Source: Dehalococcoidia bacterium (lineage in GTDB: Bacteria; Chloroflexota; Dehalococcoidia; UBA2979). From it: 64,000 nucleotides of DNA. Shown in pieces: positions 59,862 to 64,000 of this stretch. The stretch lies in the NCBI GenBank assembly GCA_965262725.1, contig OZ253555.1, positions 3,360,001-3,424,000 on the forward strand, in the 5' to 3' direction. The notes beneath the pieces were generated by a model. That model was not told the origin of the DNA. It saw only the letters and a list, made by a program, of their open reading frames with translations, and searched no databases. Every line of letters begins with the position of its first letter. Positions within the stretch are counted from its first letter, which is position 1. A program made the translations under genes and the position numbers.

Positions 59862-60581
59862 ATGCCCAACCGAATGCGCAGCCGAGTTCTGTTCCTCGAC
59901 GACTCCGGGAAGCCCGGAGCTCGTGACGCCACGAAGGCCGTTGTCATCGGCGGCTTCTCCATCCCATCAGAGAACGTCCCCACCCTGAGCCGCAGAATCG
60001 CGGGCGCGAAGTCGCGCTTCTATCCGAACCGTGGGGATCCCGCCAACTGGGAAGTGAAGGCCAGGCGGACGCTCGTACCGAACGAGTGGAAGCGCTCAAA
60101 GAACCGTCAGTTCCTCGCCGAGGCCATGCGCATTCTGGGCGACCTCGACTGCACCGTATACACGGTCAGCATCGACAAGCGCCGGCTCATGCACCCGATG
60201 GAGCTCCGCACGACCGTGCCGCTGCAGATCCAGGGGCTTGTGGAGCACTTCTCGGTGGAGTGCACGACGCGGCACGAGACGGGTCTCATTGTGTCGGACT
60301 GGTCGAACCACGACCTCGATGCCCATGCGGGCCAGAGCGTGGGGAGCTTCGTGATCTCGCGCCACCTGCCGCTCCACCCCACCGTCTACTACGCAAACTC
60401 GCTGAACTCTCATCCGATCCAGGTAGCGGACCTCATAGCGGCTGTCCGACGCCGAGCGATCGAAGGCGATGCGAATCTCCAGCCACTCGACGATCAGCTC
60501 GCGGCCATCACCGGTCCGCACCGCATCGCGGCTACCACCCACACCGGTCGACCGTACACCAACAGAATCGTTCTAATCTGA
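59862..60581 (+). CDS. DUF3800 domain protein
   Basis: N-terminal FLDDSG, VVIGG, EVK, central IVSD, C-terminal IQVADLIA. Confidence 0.85.
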   Translation: MPNRMRSRVLFLDDSGKPGARDATKAVVIGGFSIPSENVPTLSRRIAGAKSRFYPNRGDPANWEVKARRTLVPNEWKRSKNRQFLAEAMRILGDLDCTVYTVSIDKRRLMHPMELRTTVPLQIQGLVEHFSVECTTRHETGLIVSDWSNHDLDAHAGQSVGSFVISRHLPLHPTVYYANSLNSHPIQVADLIAAVRRRAIEGDANLQPLDDQLAAITGPHRIAATTHTGRPYTNRIVLI

Positions 60582-60586
60582 AAGAG

Positions 60587-60616
60587 TTTACAAACGCGGG
60601 TGAGAGAGCCTAATAT
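60587..60616 (+). promoter_or_regulatory. Putative sigma70 promoter for the small RNA
   Basis: TTTACA-N18-TAATAT, AT-rich in a GC-rich background. Confidence 0.6.
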
Positions 60617-60619
60617 CAG

Positions 60620-60712
60620 CAGAGCCAGCCGGTTCGGCTAGTAGGCGTAAGCCGAATGCAGCCGACATACCGTGGCAATGGGACCCCGGAACGCACGGGG
60701 TCCCTTTTCTTT
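60620..60712 (+). ncRNA. Putative DUF3800-associated structured small RNA
   Basis: Nested stems GCCA/TGGC, CGGT/ACCG and TCGGCT/AGCCGA enclose AGTA-GGC-GTAA-GCC-GAA; an intrinsic terminator follows. Confidence 0.7.
60680..60712 (+). terminator. Rho-independent terminator
   Basis: GGGACCCC-N9-GGGGTCCC followed by TTTTCTTT. Confidence 0.9.
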
Positions 60713-60974
60713 GCCCAGAAACCGCCTGGACTTGAGCTGTCTGATAGTAGTTGCCAGTTCCCGCGCGGCACCACGCTCGCTCGATCGACGCCGCCAGCCC
60801 CCGAGTTGAGGGGGTCCTCGTGAGAAAACCAACCGGTCTCAGGCGCATCCCGCTCTTCCTGCTCGTAATCGGCAGGGGTCCGCTCGCGCCGGCCGGGCGA
60901 ACGCCTGAACTCCCCGGTCAGTCGTCGACGGAGAAGATCACGAGGGACAGCAGTTCGAGTTCGGCAGACGGCTC

Positions 60975-61305
60975 CGGCACGGGGCTATCGCGCGTGACGG
61001 TGCGCCGCTACGTCGAGGCGGCGGAGGCGGCCGGCCTCACACCGGGCGGTCCCGAGCCGAGTGAGGAGCAGCTCGCCGCGCTGGCGACGTTGAGCCTCTC
61101 CGGCCCGCGGCCGGCCGAGGCGCCGAGCGAGGAGCTGCTCTCGCCCTGGGCGGAGCGGATCGAGCGCTGGCTCACGGCCGACCGCCTGCAGCTGACGCGC
61201 ATCCAGGAGCTCCTCGCCGGGCGAGGCTGCGAGGTTTCCTACACCACGCTGCGGCGCTTCATCCGGCGACGCGGCTGGCGTCACCGGCAGCCGGTGACCG
61301 TGCGC
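60975..61305 (+). pseudogene. IS21 transposase N-terminal fragment
   Basis: TGLSRVTVRRYVEAA..IQELLAGRGCEVSYTTLRRFI..TVR. Confidence 0.75.
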
Positions 61306-61728
61306 GCCCTCGCCTCCGCCGTGCAGGTGCGTGCCCGCGCCCAGCAGCAGCTGGTCTGGAATCGCACCCGCGAGAGCAACCGACTGCGCAGCGCGCTGCT
61401 GCAGTACTTCCCGGCCGCTCTTCAGGCCTTCCCCGACCTCGCGCACGCGGATGCGCTCTCGGTGCTCGCCGTCGCACCGGAGCCGCTCGCAGCGGCGAAG
61501 CTGACGCGGGCGCAGCTCCGCGCGGCGCTCAGGCGCGGGGGCCGCAAGCGCAACCTGGACACGCGGACGGAGGAGATCCACGAGAAGCTCCGCCTCCGGA
61601 CGCTCCACGTCGCGCCCGCCCTCAGTCAGGCGTTCGCCGACAGCGTGCTCGTCCAGGTCGGGCAGCTCCAGGAGATCAACCGGCAGCTCGAGGGACTGGA
61701 GTCGAAGCTGGCCGCGTCTACCGACTAA

Positions 61729-63168
61729 CTACACCGTCGCCAAACCTGTGGTCGGCGGTCCGGGAGCTCCGGTTCCATCCGCTTCGTGGCCTCCGAGCGG
61801 CACCAGCTGGTAGCCGAGCTTCCTGGCCCTGCGTCTCGCGTTGCGGAGGGCTCTCTCGTGGTGCTGCGCCTCGTAGTACTCGGCTCCGGCGTCCGTGTAC
61901 CCGTGTCCGTACTTCAGGCTCGAGTAGATGATCCTCGCCAGCTTGTGAGCCGTCGCAGTGATGGCCTTGGCTGGCCCCAGCTGCGCCTTCTTCCTCCGCA
62001 GGAACGCCCCCAGGGCGCTGTTGGAGCGGTGAAGACCGAAGGCGGCAAGACGCAGGGCCGCTGCTGCCCGGTTCGCCGACGGCGTGGTCCGGGAGCTGAT
62101 GACCTTGCCTCCGGTGACGCGGTTGTTCGGGCTCAGGCCCAACCACGATGCGAAGTGCTTCGGGGTTTCCCAGCGGCTCATGTCCACCCCGACCTCGCTG
62201 ACGACCTTCAGCGCCGTATGGGCGTCCACGCCATCGATGCGCGTCAGGTCCACCCCCGTCATCCGGTAGAGATGGCTCCGCACGTCGAACGCCGGCGCAT
62301 TCTTGGCGCGCTTCGACCGCTTGGGCTTCCCGAGAGGCGGCCGGGGGTCGCCGGAATCGTCCCACTCCTCCAGTAGCGCCTCGAGCTTCCCGTCGCACTC
62401 GGCGATCTTGCCCTGGTACACCCGGTAGAGATCCCGGGCCTGCGCCAGTTCGAAGAGGTGCTCCTCCCGCCAGTGCCCCTCCAGTGACCGGGCGATCATC
62501 GACGTGTCCGCCCGGATCCTCGGGTCACGCAGCTGCGCCAGCTTCACGGGGTCACGCTCGCCACCAATGACGGCATCAATGATGGCCAGTCCCGTCGCGC
62601 CGGTGATGTCGCTGATGACGTGCTGGAGCTTGACGTTCATCTGGGTCAGGGCCTTCTGCATGTGCTGAACGTGTCTGGCCGCGTCCTCGACCAGCAGGGC
62701 TCGCTGCCGCATGTAGCTGCGCAGTCGGCGGATATCCTCATCGGGACGGAAGGCTCCGGAGAGCAGCCCGTAGGTGTGAAGCTGCTGGATCCACTGGCTG
62801 TCCAGCACATCCGTCTTGCGGCCGGGCGCATTCTTGATGCCCCTCGGGTTCACCAGCAGCACCTCGAATCCCCGCTCCTCCAGCACTCCGAAGAGCGGGA
62901 TCCAGTACACCCCCGTCGACTCCAGCGCCACGGTCTCGATGCCGCACTCGGCCAACCAGTCCGCCAGGCGGTACAGGTCGCCCGTGAAAGCTGCGAACTC
63001 CCGCACCGGCGTATCGGAACGGTCCTCGGGGACTGCCACGAAGTGGCTCTCGGCGCCCACATCGATCCCGGCCGCGTTCAGGTTCACCCGGGACAGCGCC
63101 GCGGGCAGTACCGGCGGATCGCCCCGCGTTCCGTCGGCGCGCCGGGCACTCTCGCCTCGTGTCTCCAT
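61729..63168 (-). CDS. IS110 family transposase/recombinase
   Basis: DEDD motifs AGIDVG, ALESTGVYW and KTDVLDS; HFASWLGLSP..TGGK; AITATAHKLARIIY. Confidence 0.95.
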   Translation of the reverse strand: METRGESARRADGTRGDPPVLPAALSRVNLNAAGIDVGAESHFVAVPEDRSDTPVREFAAFTGDLYRLADWLAECGIETVALESTGVYWIPLFGVLEERGFEVLLVNPRGIKNAPGRKTDVLDSQWIQQLHTYGLLSGAFRPDEDIRRLRSYMRQRALLVEDAARHVQHMQKALTQMNVKLQHVISDITGATGLAIIDAVIGGERDPVKLAQLRDPRIRADTSMIARSLEGHWREEHLFELAQARDLYRVYQGKIAECDGKLEALLEEWDDSGDPRPPLGKPKRSKRAKNAPAFDVRSHLYRMTGVDLTRIDGVDAHTALKVVSEVGVDMSRWETPKHFASWLGLSPNNRVTGGKVISSRTTPSANRAAAALRLAAFGLHRSNSALGAFLRRKKAQLGPAKAITATAHKLARIIYSSLKYGHGYTDAGAEYYEAQHHERALRNARRRARKLGYQLVPLGGHEADGTGAPGPPTTGLATV

Positions 63169-63184
63169 CCTCTCGCCCCCTCCC

Positions 63185-63360
63185 CCACAGCGTGGGCGTG
63201 TGACCGGAGGGAGCCACGACCAGACCGACACTCTACCGAACGGGATCGCCCCGACGGGACGTCACCAGTGATGCAGTCGCAGGGCTCCCGGACCATGCTT
63301 TTGAACGGGCAGATCGCACCAACGATGTACCGGCCTCGGCCCGGTCATCACGCCTCGCCG
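63185..63360 (-). ncRNA. Putative IS110 bridge RNA (ends approximate)
   Basis: Contains, in order, segments matching left target, right target, left donor and right donor (see findings). Confidence 0.75.
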
Positions 63361-64000
63361 CGACTATACATCGCCGCTCGGCCCACCCCAGTTAGTGGCT
63401 TGCTGCACCGCCCGGCCGCCGGGGGTGGGGTGCTTTTGAGGAGCACCCGGACGCCGCGATTTACCTGTCGATGCCGGGCCTGGGGCCCGTGCTCGGCGCC
63501 CGGGTGCTGGGCGAGTTCGGGGATGAACCCGAACGCTTCGTGTCCGCGAAGTCCCGCAGGAACTACGCGGGCACGTCGCCGCTCACCATATCATCGGGGC
63601 GGAAGCGGGCGGTCACCGCGCGCCACGTGCGGAACCGGCGCCTCTACGACGCGGTACACCTGTGGGCGTTCTGCTCGCTCCAGGCGAGTCCCGGGTGTCG
63701 GGCGTACTACCAGCAGCGGCGGGCGCTGGGCGACGGGCACAACCAGGCGCTGCGCGCCCTCGCCAACCGCCTGGTCGCGTTCCTGCACGGCTGCCTGAGC
63801 ACGCGTCGGCTCTACGACGAGCAGGCGGCCTGGGGCGGCCTGAAGACTGAGCCTGCCGAGCTCGCCGCCTGACGGAGGTCGTTGAGCGCCTCGGCGGGCC
63901 CGGACTCATCCAGGGTCTGGAGCTCGTTGAGGGCGCAACATGGCGCGACGAGTACCTGCGCACCCCGCATCACGGGCGACCGGCAGCGGTCGGCCAGCCA

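Follow-up and report, generated by a model that had tools for sequence, protein, structure and literature searches.

How does an IS110-family insertion sequence come to lie inside the transposase gene of another IS110, and which parts of its own sequence would specify that site and the ends of the element? Bridge RNAs underlie a new class of programmable recombinases, and an earlier note on the window (the whole 64,000-nucleotide stretch of DNA analysed, to which all coordinates refer) had read the locus as such a system: an IS110-family element with an AG core and short subterminal inverted repeats, inserted into another IS110 and carrying in its 5′ non-coding end a guide RNA with four guide segments in the manner of IS621. 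The family assignment, the core, the repeats, the nested insertion and the structured RNA, with its target loop ahead of its donor loop, were all upheld. All four guide strings are present where the note had placed them; the left target and left donor guides stood, whereas the right target and right donor guides did not.

The element is an IS110-family insertion sequence of 1,715 bp, a length that includes one copy of the AG core (Table 1). Its limits were set by a head-to-tail dimer, in which two copies overlap by 2 bp, and by two empty sites; the alignment of orthologues (90% identity) spans the core to position 61718. AG is single in the empty sites, stands at both junctions of the occupied sites and forms the overlap within the dimer. 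The arrangement of left target and AG followed by CA... at the left junction, and of ...AG followed by the right target at the right junction, is found in 35 of 35 related elements with mapped ends. Comparison of empty and occupied sites reveals no target duplication beyond this shared 2-nt core. The donor junction in the dimer is GTTAGTCGGT-AG-CACCCC, also given as GTTAGTCGGT-AG-CACCCCACC, and not the circle junction GTTAGTCGGT-AG-CCACTAAC that had been predicted; the abutted ends are known from the genomic dimer alone, circle reads being indistinguishable from it.

The genome contains four near-identical copies of the element, two of which make up the dimer; the four show no more than 5 differences over 1,717 nt, and each has an intact ORF. 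All copies share a single insertion site within the transposase gene of the host IS110, parts of which flank the element on either side, and the occupied host sites (n = 3) are identical in position. The two empty sites read CTCAAG-AG-ACGCGG. This provides a natural specificity experiment within the genome: host-IS110 copies with TCAAA-AG, which match the left guide perfectly, are occupied in three of three cases, whereas two intact copies with a single-base variant beside the core (G rather than A at -1) are empty. The element is intact and has been recently active, as follows from the near-identical copies with intact ORFs, the head-to-tail dimer and the filling of every TCAAA-AG host copy.

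The encoded protein is, as judged from its sequence, an IS110-family DEDD transposase. It matches the Pfam families PF01548 (3.1e-22, 79.4 bits) and PF02371 (6.1e-12, 46.2 bits), both above cut-off, and the NCBIfam model NF033542, “IS110 family RNA-guided transposase” (255.5 bits, cut-off 140). The catalytic motifs GIDVG, LESTG and TDVLDS (GID, E and TDxxD) align with those of IS621, and the nucleophile position is occupied by Thr352 in the motif GLSPNNRVTGG; in relatives, the nucleophile residue is T in 53 and S in 27 motif matches, and 11 loci are without a match. The stop codon (61729) is followed by only 10 nt before the right end. From the viewpoint of annotation the finding is an ordinary one, an IS110-family “RNA-guided transposase” nested inside another IS110.

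The left end of the element, 265 nt upstream of the transposase gene, encodes a structured RNA. Across 25 orthologues, 96.1% of cells are paired in the predicted fold, compared with at most 51% when the partners are slid; for 67 distinct sequences the values are 94.2% and at most 47%, with compensatory changes in 32 of 40 pairs. The observed pairing values were reached by none of 500 shuffles. The sole match of a covariance model in the window is the bridge RNA core, at 153 bits, and G-U pairs fix the RNA strand as that of the transposase gene. Sequence and covariation together firmly predict a folded guide RNA in this 5′ non-coding end. One contig from an RNA library spans 63183-63311; such contigs prove neither expression nor RNA ends.

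Two modules lie within the outer closing helix. The target-binding loop is closed by helix 3, which is 99.4% paired and shows compensatory changes in two pairs in the wide set, and encloses helix 4 (99% paired, with U-G, C-G and U-A alternatives). In the donor-binding multiloop, compensatory changes are seen in 6 of 6 pairs of helix 5 and 8 of 9 pairs of helix 8, and helix 6 is weaker, at 67.5% paired. Helix 1, a separate hairpin, is 95% paired and has two pairs with compensatory changes. Upstream of the outer helix, G64, T65, A66 and T70 of a -10-like region are invariant in 25 of 25 orthologues; as a consensus promoter scan returned no full sigma-70 site, the region is proposed as a putative RNA promoter only.

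Table 1. Features of the element, its RNA and its insertion site (window coordinates)
Feature	Position	Strand	Remarks
Whole element	61718..63432	minus	limits shared by four genomic copies
Element ends	63432; 61719-61718	minus	first base of left end 63432; right end ...GTTAGTCGGT-AG, its AG at 61719-61718
AG core, left junction	63433..63434	minus	second copy 61718-61719
Left target flank TCAAA	63435..63439	minus	in host IS110 gene; identical to left target guide
Right target flank ACGCGGC	61711..61717	minus	
Host IS110, upstream part of interrupted transposase gene	61304..61717	plus	copy truncated at 61304
Host IS110, downstream part	63435..64000	plus	Transposase_20 domain (PF02371, 1.5e-13); extends beyond window end
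Transposase gene, 479 aa	61729..63168	minus	DEDD/RuvC-like and Tnp domains
Bridge RNA core, 160 nt (predicted)	63195..63354	minus	RNAalifold on 25 orthologues
Outer closing helix, long	63354-63340 with 63208-63195	minus	
Target-binding loop	63291..63335	minus	helix GGCCG (63335-63331) with UGGUC (63295-63291)
Small hairpin separating the two target guides	63308..63320	minus	helix 4
Donor-binding multiloop	63209..63289	minus	closed by 63289-63284/63214-63209 and 63281-63279/63217-63215; hairpin 63266-63242 inside
G+C-rich hairpin	63408..63424	minus	helix 1; very start of left end, within right donor half-site
-10-like hexamer TATAGT (TAnnnT), putative RNA promoter	63363..63368	minus	8 nt upstream of outer helix
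Left target guide UUCAAA-AG, then CA	63296..63305	minus	equals top strand of left flank, core and first 2 nt of element
Proposed right target guide GUACAUC	63324..63330	minus	5′ side of target loop; C63324 would pair with core G
Left donor guide GUUCGGU-AG, GUUCGGUAG	63233..63241	minus	3′ side of donor loop
Left subterminal inverted repeat CCACTAACT	63390..63398	minus	34 nt inside left end
Right subterminal inverted repeat AGTTAGTCG	61722..61730	minus	ends 4 nt from right end
CTGCGACT, rejected as right target guide	63275..63282	minus	conserved scaffold
GTGGCT, rejected as right donor guide	63212..63217	minus	3′ strand of helices 5 and 6; matched sequence internal

The left target guide lies in the target loop, where the identity reported earlier, TCAAAAG at 63304-63298 with 63439-63433, extends to 9 nt (63304-63296 with 63439-63431). 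When the 265-nt left end was shuffled 20,000 times, the 7-mer appeared in 0.19% and the 9-mer in 0.005% of cases. The shuffle tests overstate significance, since related elements that occupy homologous sites do not count as independent. Per position, 26 to 33 of the 35 insertions have the same base at left-end positions 129-133 as at left-flank positions -5 to -1. In a wider set of 83 rows, 47 have a perfect upstream copy of the 7-mer and a further 22 have one with a single mismatch. The dinucleotide behind the guide AG is the one with which the element begins in 37 of 39 distinct perfect cases, which comprise 7 dinucleotide types. The left target guide (63305-63298) is thus taken as real, tracking the flanks over 35 related insertions; as it carries the top-strand sequence, it would pair with the bottom strand.

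The left donor guide follows the same pattern. TCGGTAG (63239-63233) equals the right end plus core (61724-61718), a 7-mer seen in 1.7% of shuffles, and left-end positions 196-198 agree with right-end positions -3 to -1 in 32 to 33 of the 35 insertions, counted position by position. The duplex energy is -10.14 kcal/mol for cognate and -5.45 kcal/mol for non-cognate pairs. The agreement is inflated by shared descent, since the donor belongs to the element; even then, each of the four variants TCGGTAG, TGGGGAG, TCCATAG and TCGATAG matches its own right end. With its agreement with the right ends of the 35 related insertions, this guide (63241-63233) is likewise taken as real. Both left guides are placed by the predicted fold on the 3′ side of their loops, after the inner hairpin and before the 3′ strand of the closing helix. 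A comparison with other insertion sites, which the earlier note had suggested, therefore bears out these two guides.

Such end-flank matches might instead be remnants of sequence history, for example of a junction duplication, without any function in RNA, and the 9-nt identity does span the integrated junction, as a copied junction would. However, the segment changes with its flank in dozens of independent insertions while the scaffold stays fixed, it sits in a loop of the fold in which 32 of 40 pairs covary, and the RNA strand fixed by the G-U pairs is that of the transposase gene. We give the remnant reading next to no probability.

For the right guides, the layout proposed earlier was IS621-like, with a right target guide CUGCGACU (63282-63275) and a right donor guide GUGGCU (63217-63212), each placed after the corresponding left guide. 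Besides the presence of the strings, two points speak for this layout: GUG(G)CU could pair with the AG-CAC of the true left end with one base bulged, and left-then-right is the guide order of IS621 in the part of the literature consulted (PMC11208158). Both segments, however, lie within helices that show compensatory changes, and neither follows the flanks of other insertions; these are the two outcomes that the earlier note had named as refuting its reading. The match of CTGCGACT to the right target CCGCGTCT is 6 of 8, a level reached in 89% of shuffles; the segment is nearly constant among elements with different right targets, and 63282-63275 has no cognate preference for right targets (duplex energy -4.76 versus -4.82 kcal/mol for non-cognate). 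With 5 of its 8 bases in helices 6 and 7, it is conserved scaffold and not a guide. All 6 bases of GTGGCT fall in covarying helices, and every one of the six pairs of helix 5 has changed on both sides; its GCU becomes GCA, GUU or GCG in relatives while the AG core remains constant. Plus-strand 63395-63400, which GTGGCT equals and which had been taken for the other end of the element, is internal: position 63400 lies 32 nt inside the element, since the dimer and the empty sites show that the left end begins at 63432, immediately next to the AG at 63434-63433. By these sequence comparisons the layout is largely refuted, and we consider it very improbable.

A segment 5′ of the left target guide is a better candidate for the right target guide, as we infer from several comparisons. 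Among 260 antiparallel registers tried across the left end, 63330-63324 is the best, with a score of 74 out of 135 against a null-of-maximum with a mean of 58.6 and a maximum of 65 (27 sites), and right targets give a cognate energy gain (-2.65 and -1.88) with no other window. When 16 element types are represented once each, 29 of the 48 positions from +1 to +3 are paired, against an expectation of 12 (hand count), and the segment is hypervariable among elements of 90% identity. The fit to its own site is poor, comprising the core G, three Watson-Crick pairs and one G-U pair over +1 to +7, and only the second core base would be paired. In the relatives L007, L008 and L047 a 1-nt shift or bulge is needed, as judged by eye, and no fit was found to the heterogeneous right flanks of the Endozoicomonas-type (6 sites) and Thiohalocapsa-type (4 sites) elements.

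It is also conceivable, and in our judgement unlikely, that the host-IS110 site is a half-match reached through the left target guide only, the true full target being elsewhere or absent from this genome. The left flank matches at 7 of 7 positions and the right flank pairs poorly with 63330-63324; one and the same host sequence recurs at all three occupied sites; and a 2026 preprint carries the title [quoted passage not shown] (10.64898/2026.08.31.748434). Yet both host lineages (98-99% and 92-94% identity to the intact copies) carry insertions, so the site has been used repeatedly, and right flanks are loose in other families as well, the right target guide of IS621 being only 4 nt long.

In the tests of the right donor half, no register or window of the RNA preferred the element's own sequence: the best cognate gain, -0.68 or -0.48 kcal/mol, is within noise, and the register scores fall inside the null. 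The register test was gap-free and would miss a discontiguous right donor guide, which the energy tests could also overlook. The subterminal inverted repeats, CCACTAACT and AGTTAGTCG, match at 8 of 9 positions. Repeat pairs covary across 41 distinct listed elements (ACTAAC/GTTAGT, AGTAAC/GTTACT and GGAAC/GTTCC), the best repeat lying at the conserved positions in 38 of these and elsewhere in 3, and the repeats of relatives are 7 to 16 bp long with 6 to 15 matching bases. In miniature derivatives (74 to 92 bp), all that is retained is the left end as far as about position 57, together with about 33 nt of the right end.

These observations bear on whether a right donor guide exists at all. The RNA may read the target with two guides and the right end with a third, the left end being recognized in an IS1111-like manner through the 2-nt match, the repeats, the terminal hairpin or the protein; we hold this to be possible, at less than even odds. 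A cognate signal for the right donor half is absent throughout the RNA, the two bases that follow the left target guide track the element start, the repeats covary across the clade, and the miniature derivatives retain just the two end parts. Moreover, a short seekRNA with only target matches was sufficient for ISEc11, according to the portion consulted of Siddiquee et al. (PMC11187229). On the other hand, the right donor guide of IS621 is discontiguous, 2 + 4 nt, in the sections seen of PMC11208158, and would be missable by the tests used here. A variable stretch, 63232-63218, adjoins the left donor guide, and the window element differs there from L007 and L008 in step with left-end position +3 (G with C, U with A), which hints at a bulged guide. 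A role in right-donor recognition may be proposed for this dinucleotide behind the left target guide and for the subterminal repeats.

Taken together, we favour, at a probability of about 80%, an intact IS110 element with an approximately 160-nt left-end bridge RNA, in which two modules are enclosed by a long closing helix, the left guides being 3′ and the right target guide 5′. In the target module, the small hairpin is followed by 63305-63298, which has the left target and core sequence and would pair with the bottom strand. In the donor module, GUUCGGUAG, which carries the right end and core sequence, comes after a conserved stretch and a hairpin. By analogy with IS621, the complex of transposase and RNA would join the donor site GTTAGTCGGT-AG-CACCCC with the target TCAAA-AG-N..., and strand exchange, with its chemistry also modelled on that system, would occur at AG. 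Such an exchange would have placed the element into every TCAAA-AG copy of the host IS110 in the genome.

The RNA is not confined to this genome: the covariance model finds it at full length upstream of a transposase at 83 places, from 77 sources in many phyla. To our knowledge, nearly all mechanistic work on bridge RNAs has concerned IS621 and IS622. A second well-conserved layout, with permuted guides, an AG core, a Thr nucleophile and possibly three guides only, would widen the design space, and it poses a testable question, namely how the right donor half is recognized without an evident complementary RNA segment. It is conceivable, though less likely than not, that a distinct bridge-RNA architecture is common to a large, phylum-spanning clade of IS110-family transposases of about 440-480 aa and stands in between two known groups. 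It would combine an upstream RNA, modules in the IS1111 order (right guide, hairpin, left guide), a multiloop donor module without a right donor guide, a 2-nt extension of the left target guide that reads the first two bases of the element, and asymmetric covarying subterminal repeats (at a distance of about 34 nt on the left and 4 nt on the right).

The comparison with IS621, as described in parts of two reports (PMC11208160 and PMC11208158), reveals a shared plan. Similar to IS621, the element encodes a recombinase with DEDD/RuvC and Tnp domains and has a left-end RNA upstream of the gene, with the target module followed by the donor module and no target duplication beyond the core. In both, the left guides carry top-strand sequence, complementary to the bottom strand, with the 2-nt core included; the right target guide of IS621 pairs with the top strand, as the one proposed here would. 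The proteins are barely similar (28.5 bits, E 5.8e-06), with 479 aa here and 328 in the solved IS621 chain. Further differences from what these parts describe are the core (CT in IS621, AG here), the nucleophile position (Ser in IS621, Thr here), the subterminal repeats (2-3 bp in IS621, 9 bp here) and the promoter, which in IS621 is built across the circle junction, whereas the -10-like box here lies inside the left end. In addition, the donor module here is a multiloop, the proposed right target guide pairs with the second core base only, and a right donor guide was not found in the left end. The IS621 guide order assigned in the earlier note does not hold, the order inside each loop being reversed.

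The observed order fits IS1111-type seekRNAs, as far as these are covered in the part consulted of PMC11187229: the complement of the top strand (63330-63324) lies 5′ of the complement of the bottom strand (63305-63298), a likeness that depends on the assignment of the right target guide. Subterminal inverted repeats and the GL-P----TG motif are also shared with IS1111, and donor-side nucleotides in a multiloop are noted for many IS1111 elements in the sections seen of Durrant et al. (PMC11208160). The main differences, on the same partial account of IS1111 (PMC11187229), are the location of the RNA, upstream of the transposase gene here and downstream in IS1111, the size of the protein (479 aa against 330-350 aa), and the repeats. 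The left repeat lies about 34 nt from its end here, compared with 6-7 bp in IS1111, and the right 4 nt, compared with 3; they are 9 bp long here (7-16 bp in relatives) and usually 11-13 bp, with a range of 7-17, in IS1111. A few IS1111 elements, for example ISMtsp17, have an upstream non-coding region in that account. ISEc21, an IS110-type seekRNA system in the same source, resembles the element in its upstream non-coding region and in a short RNA that matches both target strands. Its match order is the reverse of that of IS1111, and is therefore also the reverse of the order proposed here.

The element, a minus-strand insertion sequence of 1,715 bp that extends from 63432 (CACCCCACC...) to ...GTTAGTCGGT-AG at 61719-61718, is, judging by its sequence, a genuine member of the IS110 family that has been active recently and that encodes a bridge RNA; the functions assigned here to the element and its RNA are putative. 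The product of its transposase gene contains the two Pfam domains of IS110-family transposases and scores 255.5 bits against the NCBIfam family NF033542, "IS110 family RNA-guided transposase", in agreement with the assignment made in an earlier note. The open reading frame is preceded by 265 nt of non-coding sequence, termed the left end and numbered from the element start at 63432, and only 10 nt separate the stop codon from the right end. Four copies are present in the genome of the window, G000: the window copy, one at another locus, and two arranged as a head-to-tail dimer, the members of which overlap by exactly 2 bp. These four copies, the dimer overlap, and the uninterrupted copies of the host IS fix the limits of the element and the shared AG core, which the earlier note had also read. 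Sequence differences among the four copies are confined to at most five of 1,717 positions, all outside the guides, and the reading frame is open in every copy. The dimer (G000:C1:3476368-3479843, loci L003 and L004) shares one AG between its members, occupies the same host-IS110 site as the window copy, and provides a chromosomal example of the donor junction, GTTAGTCGGT-AG-CACCCC; L003 and L004 are identical to each other wherever they differ from the window copy. The left end and circle junction proposed earlier are incorrect, because the segment matched by GTGGCT (63400-63395) is internal to the element, 32 nt from its end.

The element is inserted in the opposite orientation into the transposase gene of another IS110-family element, parts of which flank it on both sides, as the earlier note had recognized. 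In two uninterrupted copies of this host IS, the empty site reads CTCCTCAAG-AG-ACGCGGCC, and in a contig from sequencing run X1, 61719 and 63436 are linked through a single C, the empty form of the site. Of the host IS, G000 has two intact copies and one fragment in addition to three copies that are occupied. The latter fall into two host lineages, one sharing 98-99% and the other 92-94% identity with the intact copies; TCAAA-AG is found in all three occupied copies and TCAAG-AG in both empty ones. Truncation of the window's host copy at 61304 suggests that more mobile DNA, nested or decayed, is present here; a long reading frame that enters the host fragment (60751-61303, plus strand) begins in unrelated sequence and has a weak match to HTH_Tnp_Tc3_2 (E 4.2e-4, below the cut-off). 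The first 59 nt beside the host IS110 (L005:700-760) recur at about 20 places in G000 with 88-98% identity, so the host IS seems to sit in, or to target, a short dispersed repeat. A search of 60500-64000 against Rfam 15 returned no matching family; the sole near match, to the actinobacterial sRNA Ms_AS-4 (46.9 bits, gathering score 50; 63470-63551, minus strand), is antisense within the host transposase gene.

Relatives of the protein were sought by scanning one genome per species, and the best 80 loci of 566 relatives, 53-90% identical to the element's protein, were kept. The closest of these 80 are mostly from Dehalococcoidia MAGs, and others are from Proteobacteria, Planctomycetota, Acidobacteriota, and Bacteroidota. 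Alignment of upstream regions fixed the left end for 36 elements, and the exact ends of many relatives were taken from within-genome copies. L014 and L066, with an unaligned upstream region, and L033, with an unrecognizable right end, were set aside, and 35 elements with both ends remain. All 35 have LT-AG followed by CA... at the left boundary and ...GTTA(G/C)Tnnnn-AG followed by RT at the right boundary, where LT and RT are the left and right targets.

RNAalifold folds 25 non-redundant left ends into eight helices, including an outer helix and the closing helices of a target module and a donor module (table). In this alignment, 96.1% of cells are paired, compared with at most 51% when the partners are slid, and compensatory changes are observed at 14 pairs; none of 500 shuffles reached the observed values. 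A covariance model made from the 169-position core finds a full-length match upstream of a transposase at 83 places in 77 sources and, within G000, matches exactly the four copies. Among 67 distinct sequences, in an alignment that was fitted to the model and thus leans towards the structure, 94.2% of cells are paired versus at most 47% with slid partners, 32 of 40 pairs show compensatory changes, and helix 6 is the weakest (67.5% paired). Single-sequence folding is uninformative at the G+C content of the left end (z of -1.23 for 268 nt and +1.02 for 161 nt). An alternative helix picked out by eye, UGGUGC (63321-63316) with GCAUCA (63274-63269), was rejected, with an uncompensated pair break in 10 of the 25 sequences.

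Features of the element, its RNA, and the interrupted host gene, in window coordinates
Feature	Position	Strand	Remark
Transposase ORF	61729-63168	minus	479 aa from the ATG behind GAGAGG
Outer helix	63354-63340 with 63208-63195	minus	
Target module, closing helix	63335-63331 with 63295-63291	minus	
Target module, inside	63320-63308 (small hairpin)	minus	variable stretch, small hairpin, second variable stretch
Donor module, closing helices	63289-63284 with 63214-63209; 63281-63279 with 63217-63215	minus	
Donor module, inside	63266-63242 (hairpin)	minus	conserved stretch, hairpin, third variable stretch
Subterminal inverted repeat	63398-63390 and 61730-61722		position conserved, sequence covaries across the clade
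Host IS gene, upstream part	ends 61717		
Host IS gene, Transposase_20 part	resumes 63435		

The four strings that the earlier note had proposed as guides are all present where it placed them, and the two left guides are borne out by the relatives. The left target guide, at left-end positions 129-133 (63304-63300), is identical to left-flank positions -5 to -1 in 26 to 33 of 35 insertions per position (31, 32, 26, 33, and 30, respectively). It reads UCAAA-AG beside a left flank of tcaaa-AG in the window, ACGAA-AG beside acgaa-AG in L008, and UUUAC-AG beside tttac-AG in L007. The left donor guide, at positions 196-198, equals right-end positions -3 to -1 in 33, 32, and 33 of 35, and its variants UCGGUAG, UGGGGAG, UCCAUAG, and UCGAUAG each equal their own right end. 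In 20,000 shuffles of the left end, the left-flank 7-mer arose by chance in 0.19%, its 9-nt extension in 0.005%, the right-end 7-mer in 1.7%, and a 6/8 match to the right flank in 89%. Among 39 distinct cases in which the 7-mer matches perfectly, 37 repeat the first two nucleotides of the element directly after the AG of the left target guide, across seven dinucleotide types (CA, CT, CG, CC, TA, TT, and AA), so that the RNA carries 9 nt of the integrated left junction; this feature was also used to decide tied matches, which can matter for imperfect matches only. When cognate minus non-cognate duplex energy is mapped along the left end for the 25 sequences, the minimum for the left-flank bottom strand falls at 122-141 (-4.7 kcal/mol) and that for the right-end bottom strand at 186-209 (-5.6 kcal/mol). 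A wider set of 52 sequences gives the same picture, its left-flank and right-end energies being circular in that the ends had been located by the guides.

In the same map of the 25 sequences, the right-flank top strand has its minimum at left-end positions 98-113 (-2.65 kcal/mol). In the best of 260 gap-free registers, left-end position 108 pairs with flank +1, and C109, which is invariant, pairs with the G of the core. This register scores 74 of 135, whereas the best register in each of 200 shuffles averaged 58.6 and never exceeded 65, at 27 sites, 7 of 34 having been dropped for a right flank that is another element's left end; related elements at homologous sites are not independent in these statistics. 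The segment that follows the right flanks, 63330-63324, is on balance the better candidate for the right target guide, with modest confidence, because the sites are related, the window's own right flank pairs poorly with this segment, some elements need a 1-nt shift of register, and the right flanks of two distant multi-copy families are heterogeneous and do not match it. The segment that had been named as this guide, CTGCGACT (63282-63275), does not hold up: five of its eight bases lie in helices 6 and 7, and it shows no preference for its own right flank (-4.76 versus -4.82).

The proposed right donor guide, GTGGCT, is likewise structural. All six bases form the 3′ strand of helices 5 and 6, and the supposed core-binding GCU is replaced by GCA, GUU, or GCG, with the opposite strand compensating, although the core is always AG. 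No cognate preference for a right donor guide was detected by column-by-column covariation, over all gap-free registers with and without G-U pairs, by duplex energies in zones on both sides of the donor hairpin, or in sliding windows along the whole left end of 25 sequences (best, -0.68 kcal/mol) or across 52 sequences. The 52-sequence windows contain a weak identity-sense signal between the element start and the small hairpin region (-1.33), which probably reflects G+C-rich composition shared within lineages.

A TAnnnT box, of which T65, A66, T70, and the preceding G are invariant in 25 of 25 sequences, is positioned 8 nt upstream of the outer helix and is a putative -10 box of the RNA; no promoter was detected when 63100-63500 was scanned for sigma-70 sites and terminators. 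A covarying hairpin is found at left-end positions 9-25, and a terminator-like hairpin with a T-run (63416-63428, plus strand) overlaps this terminal hairpin and is oriented out of the element, towards the host IS. The subterminal inverted repeats described earlier are real. Of the 41 distinct elements listed, 38 carry them approximately 32-45 nt in from the left end and 4-5 nt in from the right, and in the other three (L036, L008, and L057) the best repeat is found elsewhere. In a sponge metatranscriptome library (run X20), a contig of 195 nt spans 63183-63311, covering the target and donor loops, with three differences in 129 nt; as an assembled contig, it is no proof of transcription. The sequencing runs consist of contigs only, from which RNA ends, strand, and level cannot be read. 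Two RNA libraries have no contig over 63324-63500, and such uncovered stretches carry no evidential weight.

Relatives at approximately 52-56% identity reside on plasmids of many genera, including Citrobacter and Enterobacter. On a Citrobacter freundii plasmid (CP132326.1; L103:1014-1158), a weak match to the RNA model (31.7 bits) lies directly upstream of the gene for a relative that is found on enterobacterial plasmids; this protein is 52.5% identical, and the same protein hit recurs in many records. In the model alignment, the left target guide slot of L103 has AA where the others have AG, and its donor guide slot is less clear. The model has no match at E 0.01 or better in a Paraburkholderia plasmid relative. 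In several MAGs, different clade elements form tandem arrays in which an element is bordered on its right by the left end of the following one (L019, L022, L028, L031, L035, L036, L040, and L086). Clade elements often target each other's ends, since the left flanks of L015, L023, L024, and L041 are the right ends of other elements. Between full elements lie miniature ones of 74-92 bp (L019:2955-3046, L028:2948-3039, and L022:2919-2992); each consists of the first ~55 nt of a left end, with hairpin and left repeat, fused to the terminal ~33 nt of a right end, with the right repeat, and AG is present on both flanks.

In each loop of the IS621 RNA, the hairpin is preceded by the left guide and followed by the right guide (LTG 50-58, RTG 77-80, LDG 123-130, and RDG 157-165; PMC11208158), and Durrant et al. 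give the same order for their covariation set (PMC11208160). Both left guides of the present element, in contrast, are 3′ of the hairpin, and this order and the missing right donor guide break the IS621 pattern; the proteins are only remotely alike (28.5 bits). The layout of the RNA is a variant for which no description was found among the literature listed, although the clade may already be included in the supplementary tables of Durrant et al. (covariance models and ISfinder elements) or in the supplementary tree of Siddiquee et al. Like IS110-type elements, the element has its RNA upstream of the gene. Its guide order, subterminal repeats, TG motif, and donor multiloop are similar to those of the IS1111 type, but its repeat offsets, 479-residue protein length, and RNA position depart from the IS1111 definition. 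The element thus mixes IS110-type and IS1111-type features and fits neither group fully.
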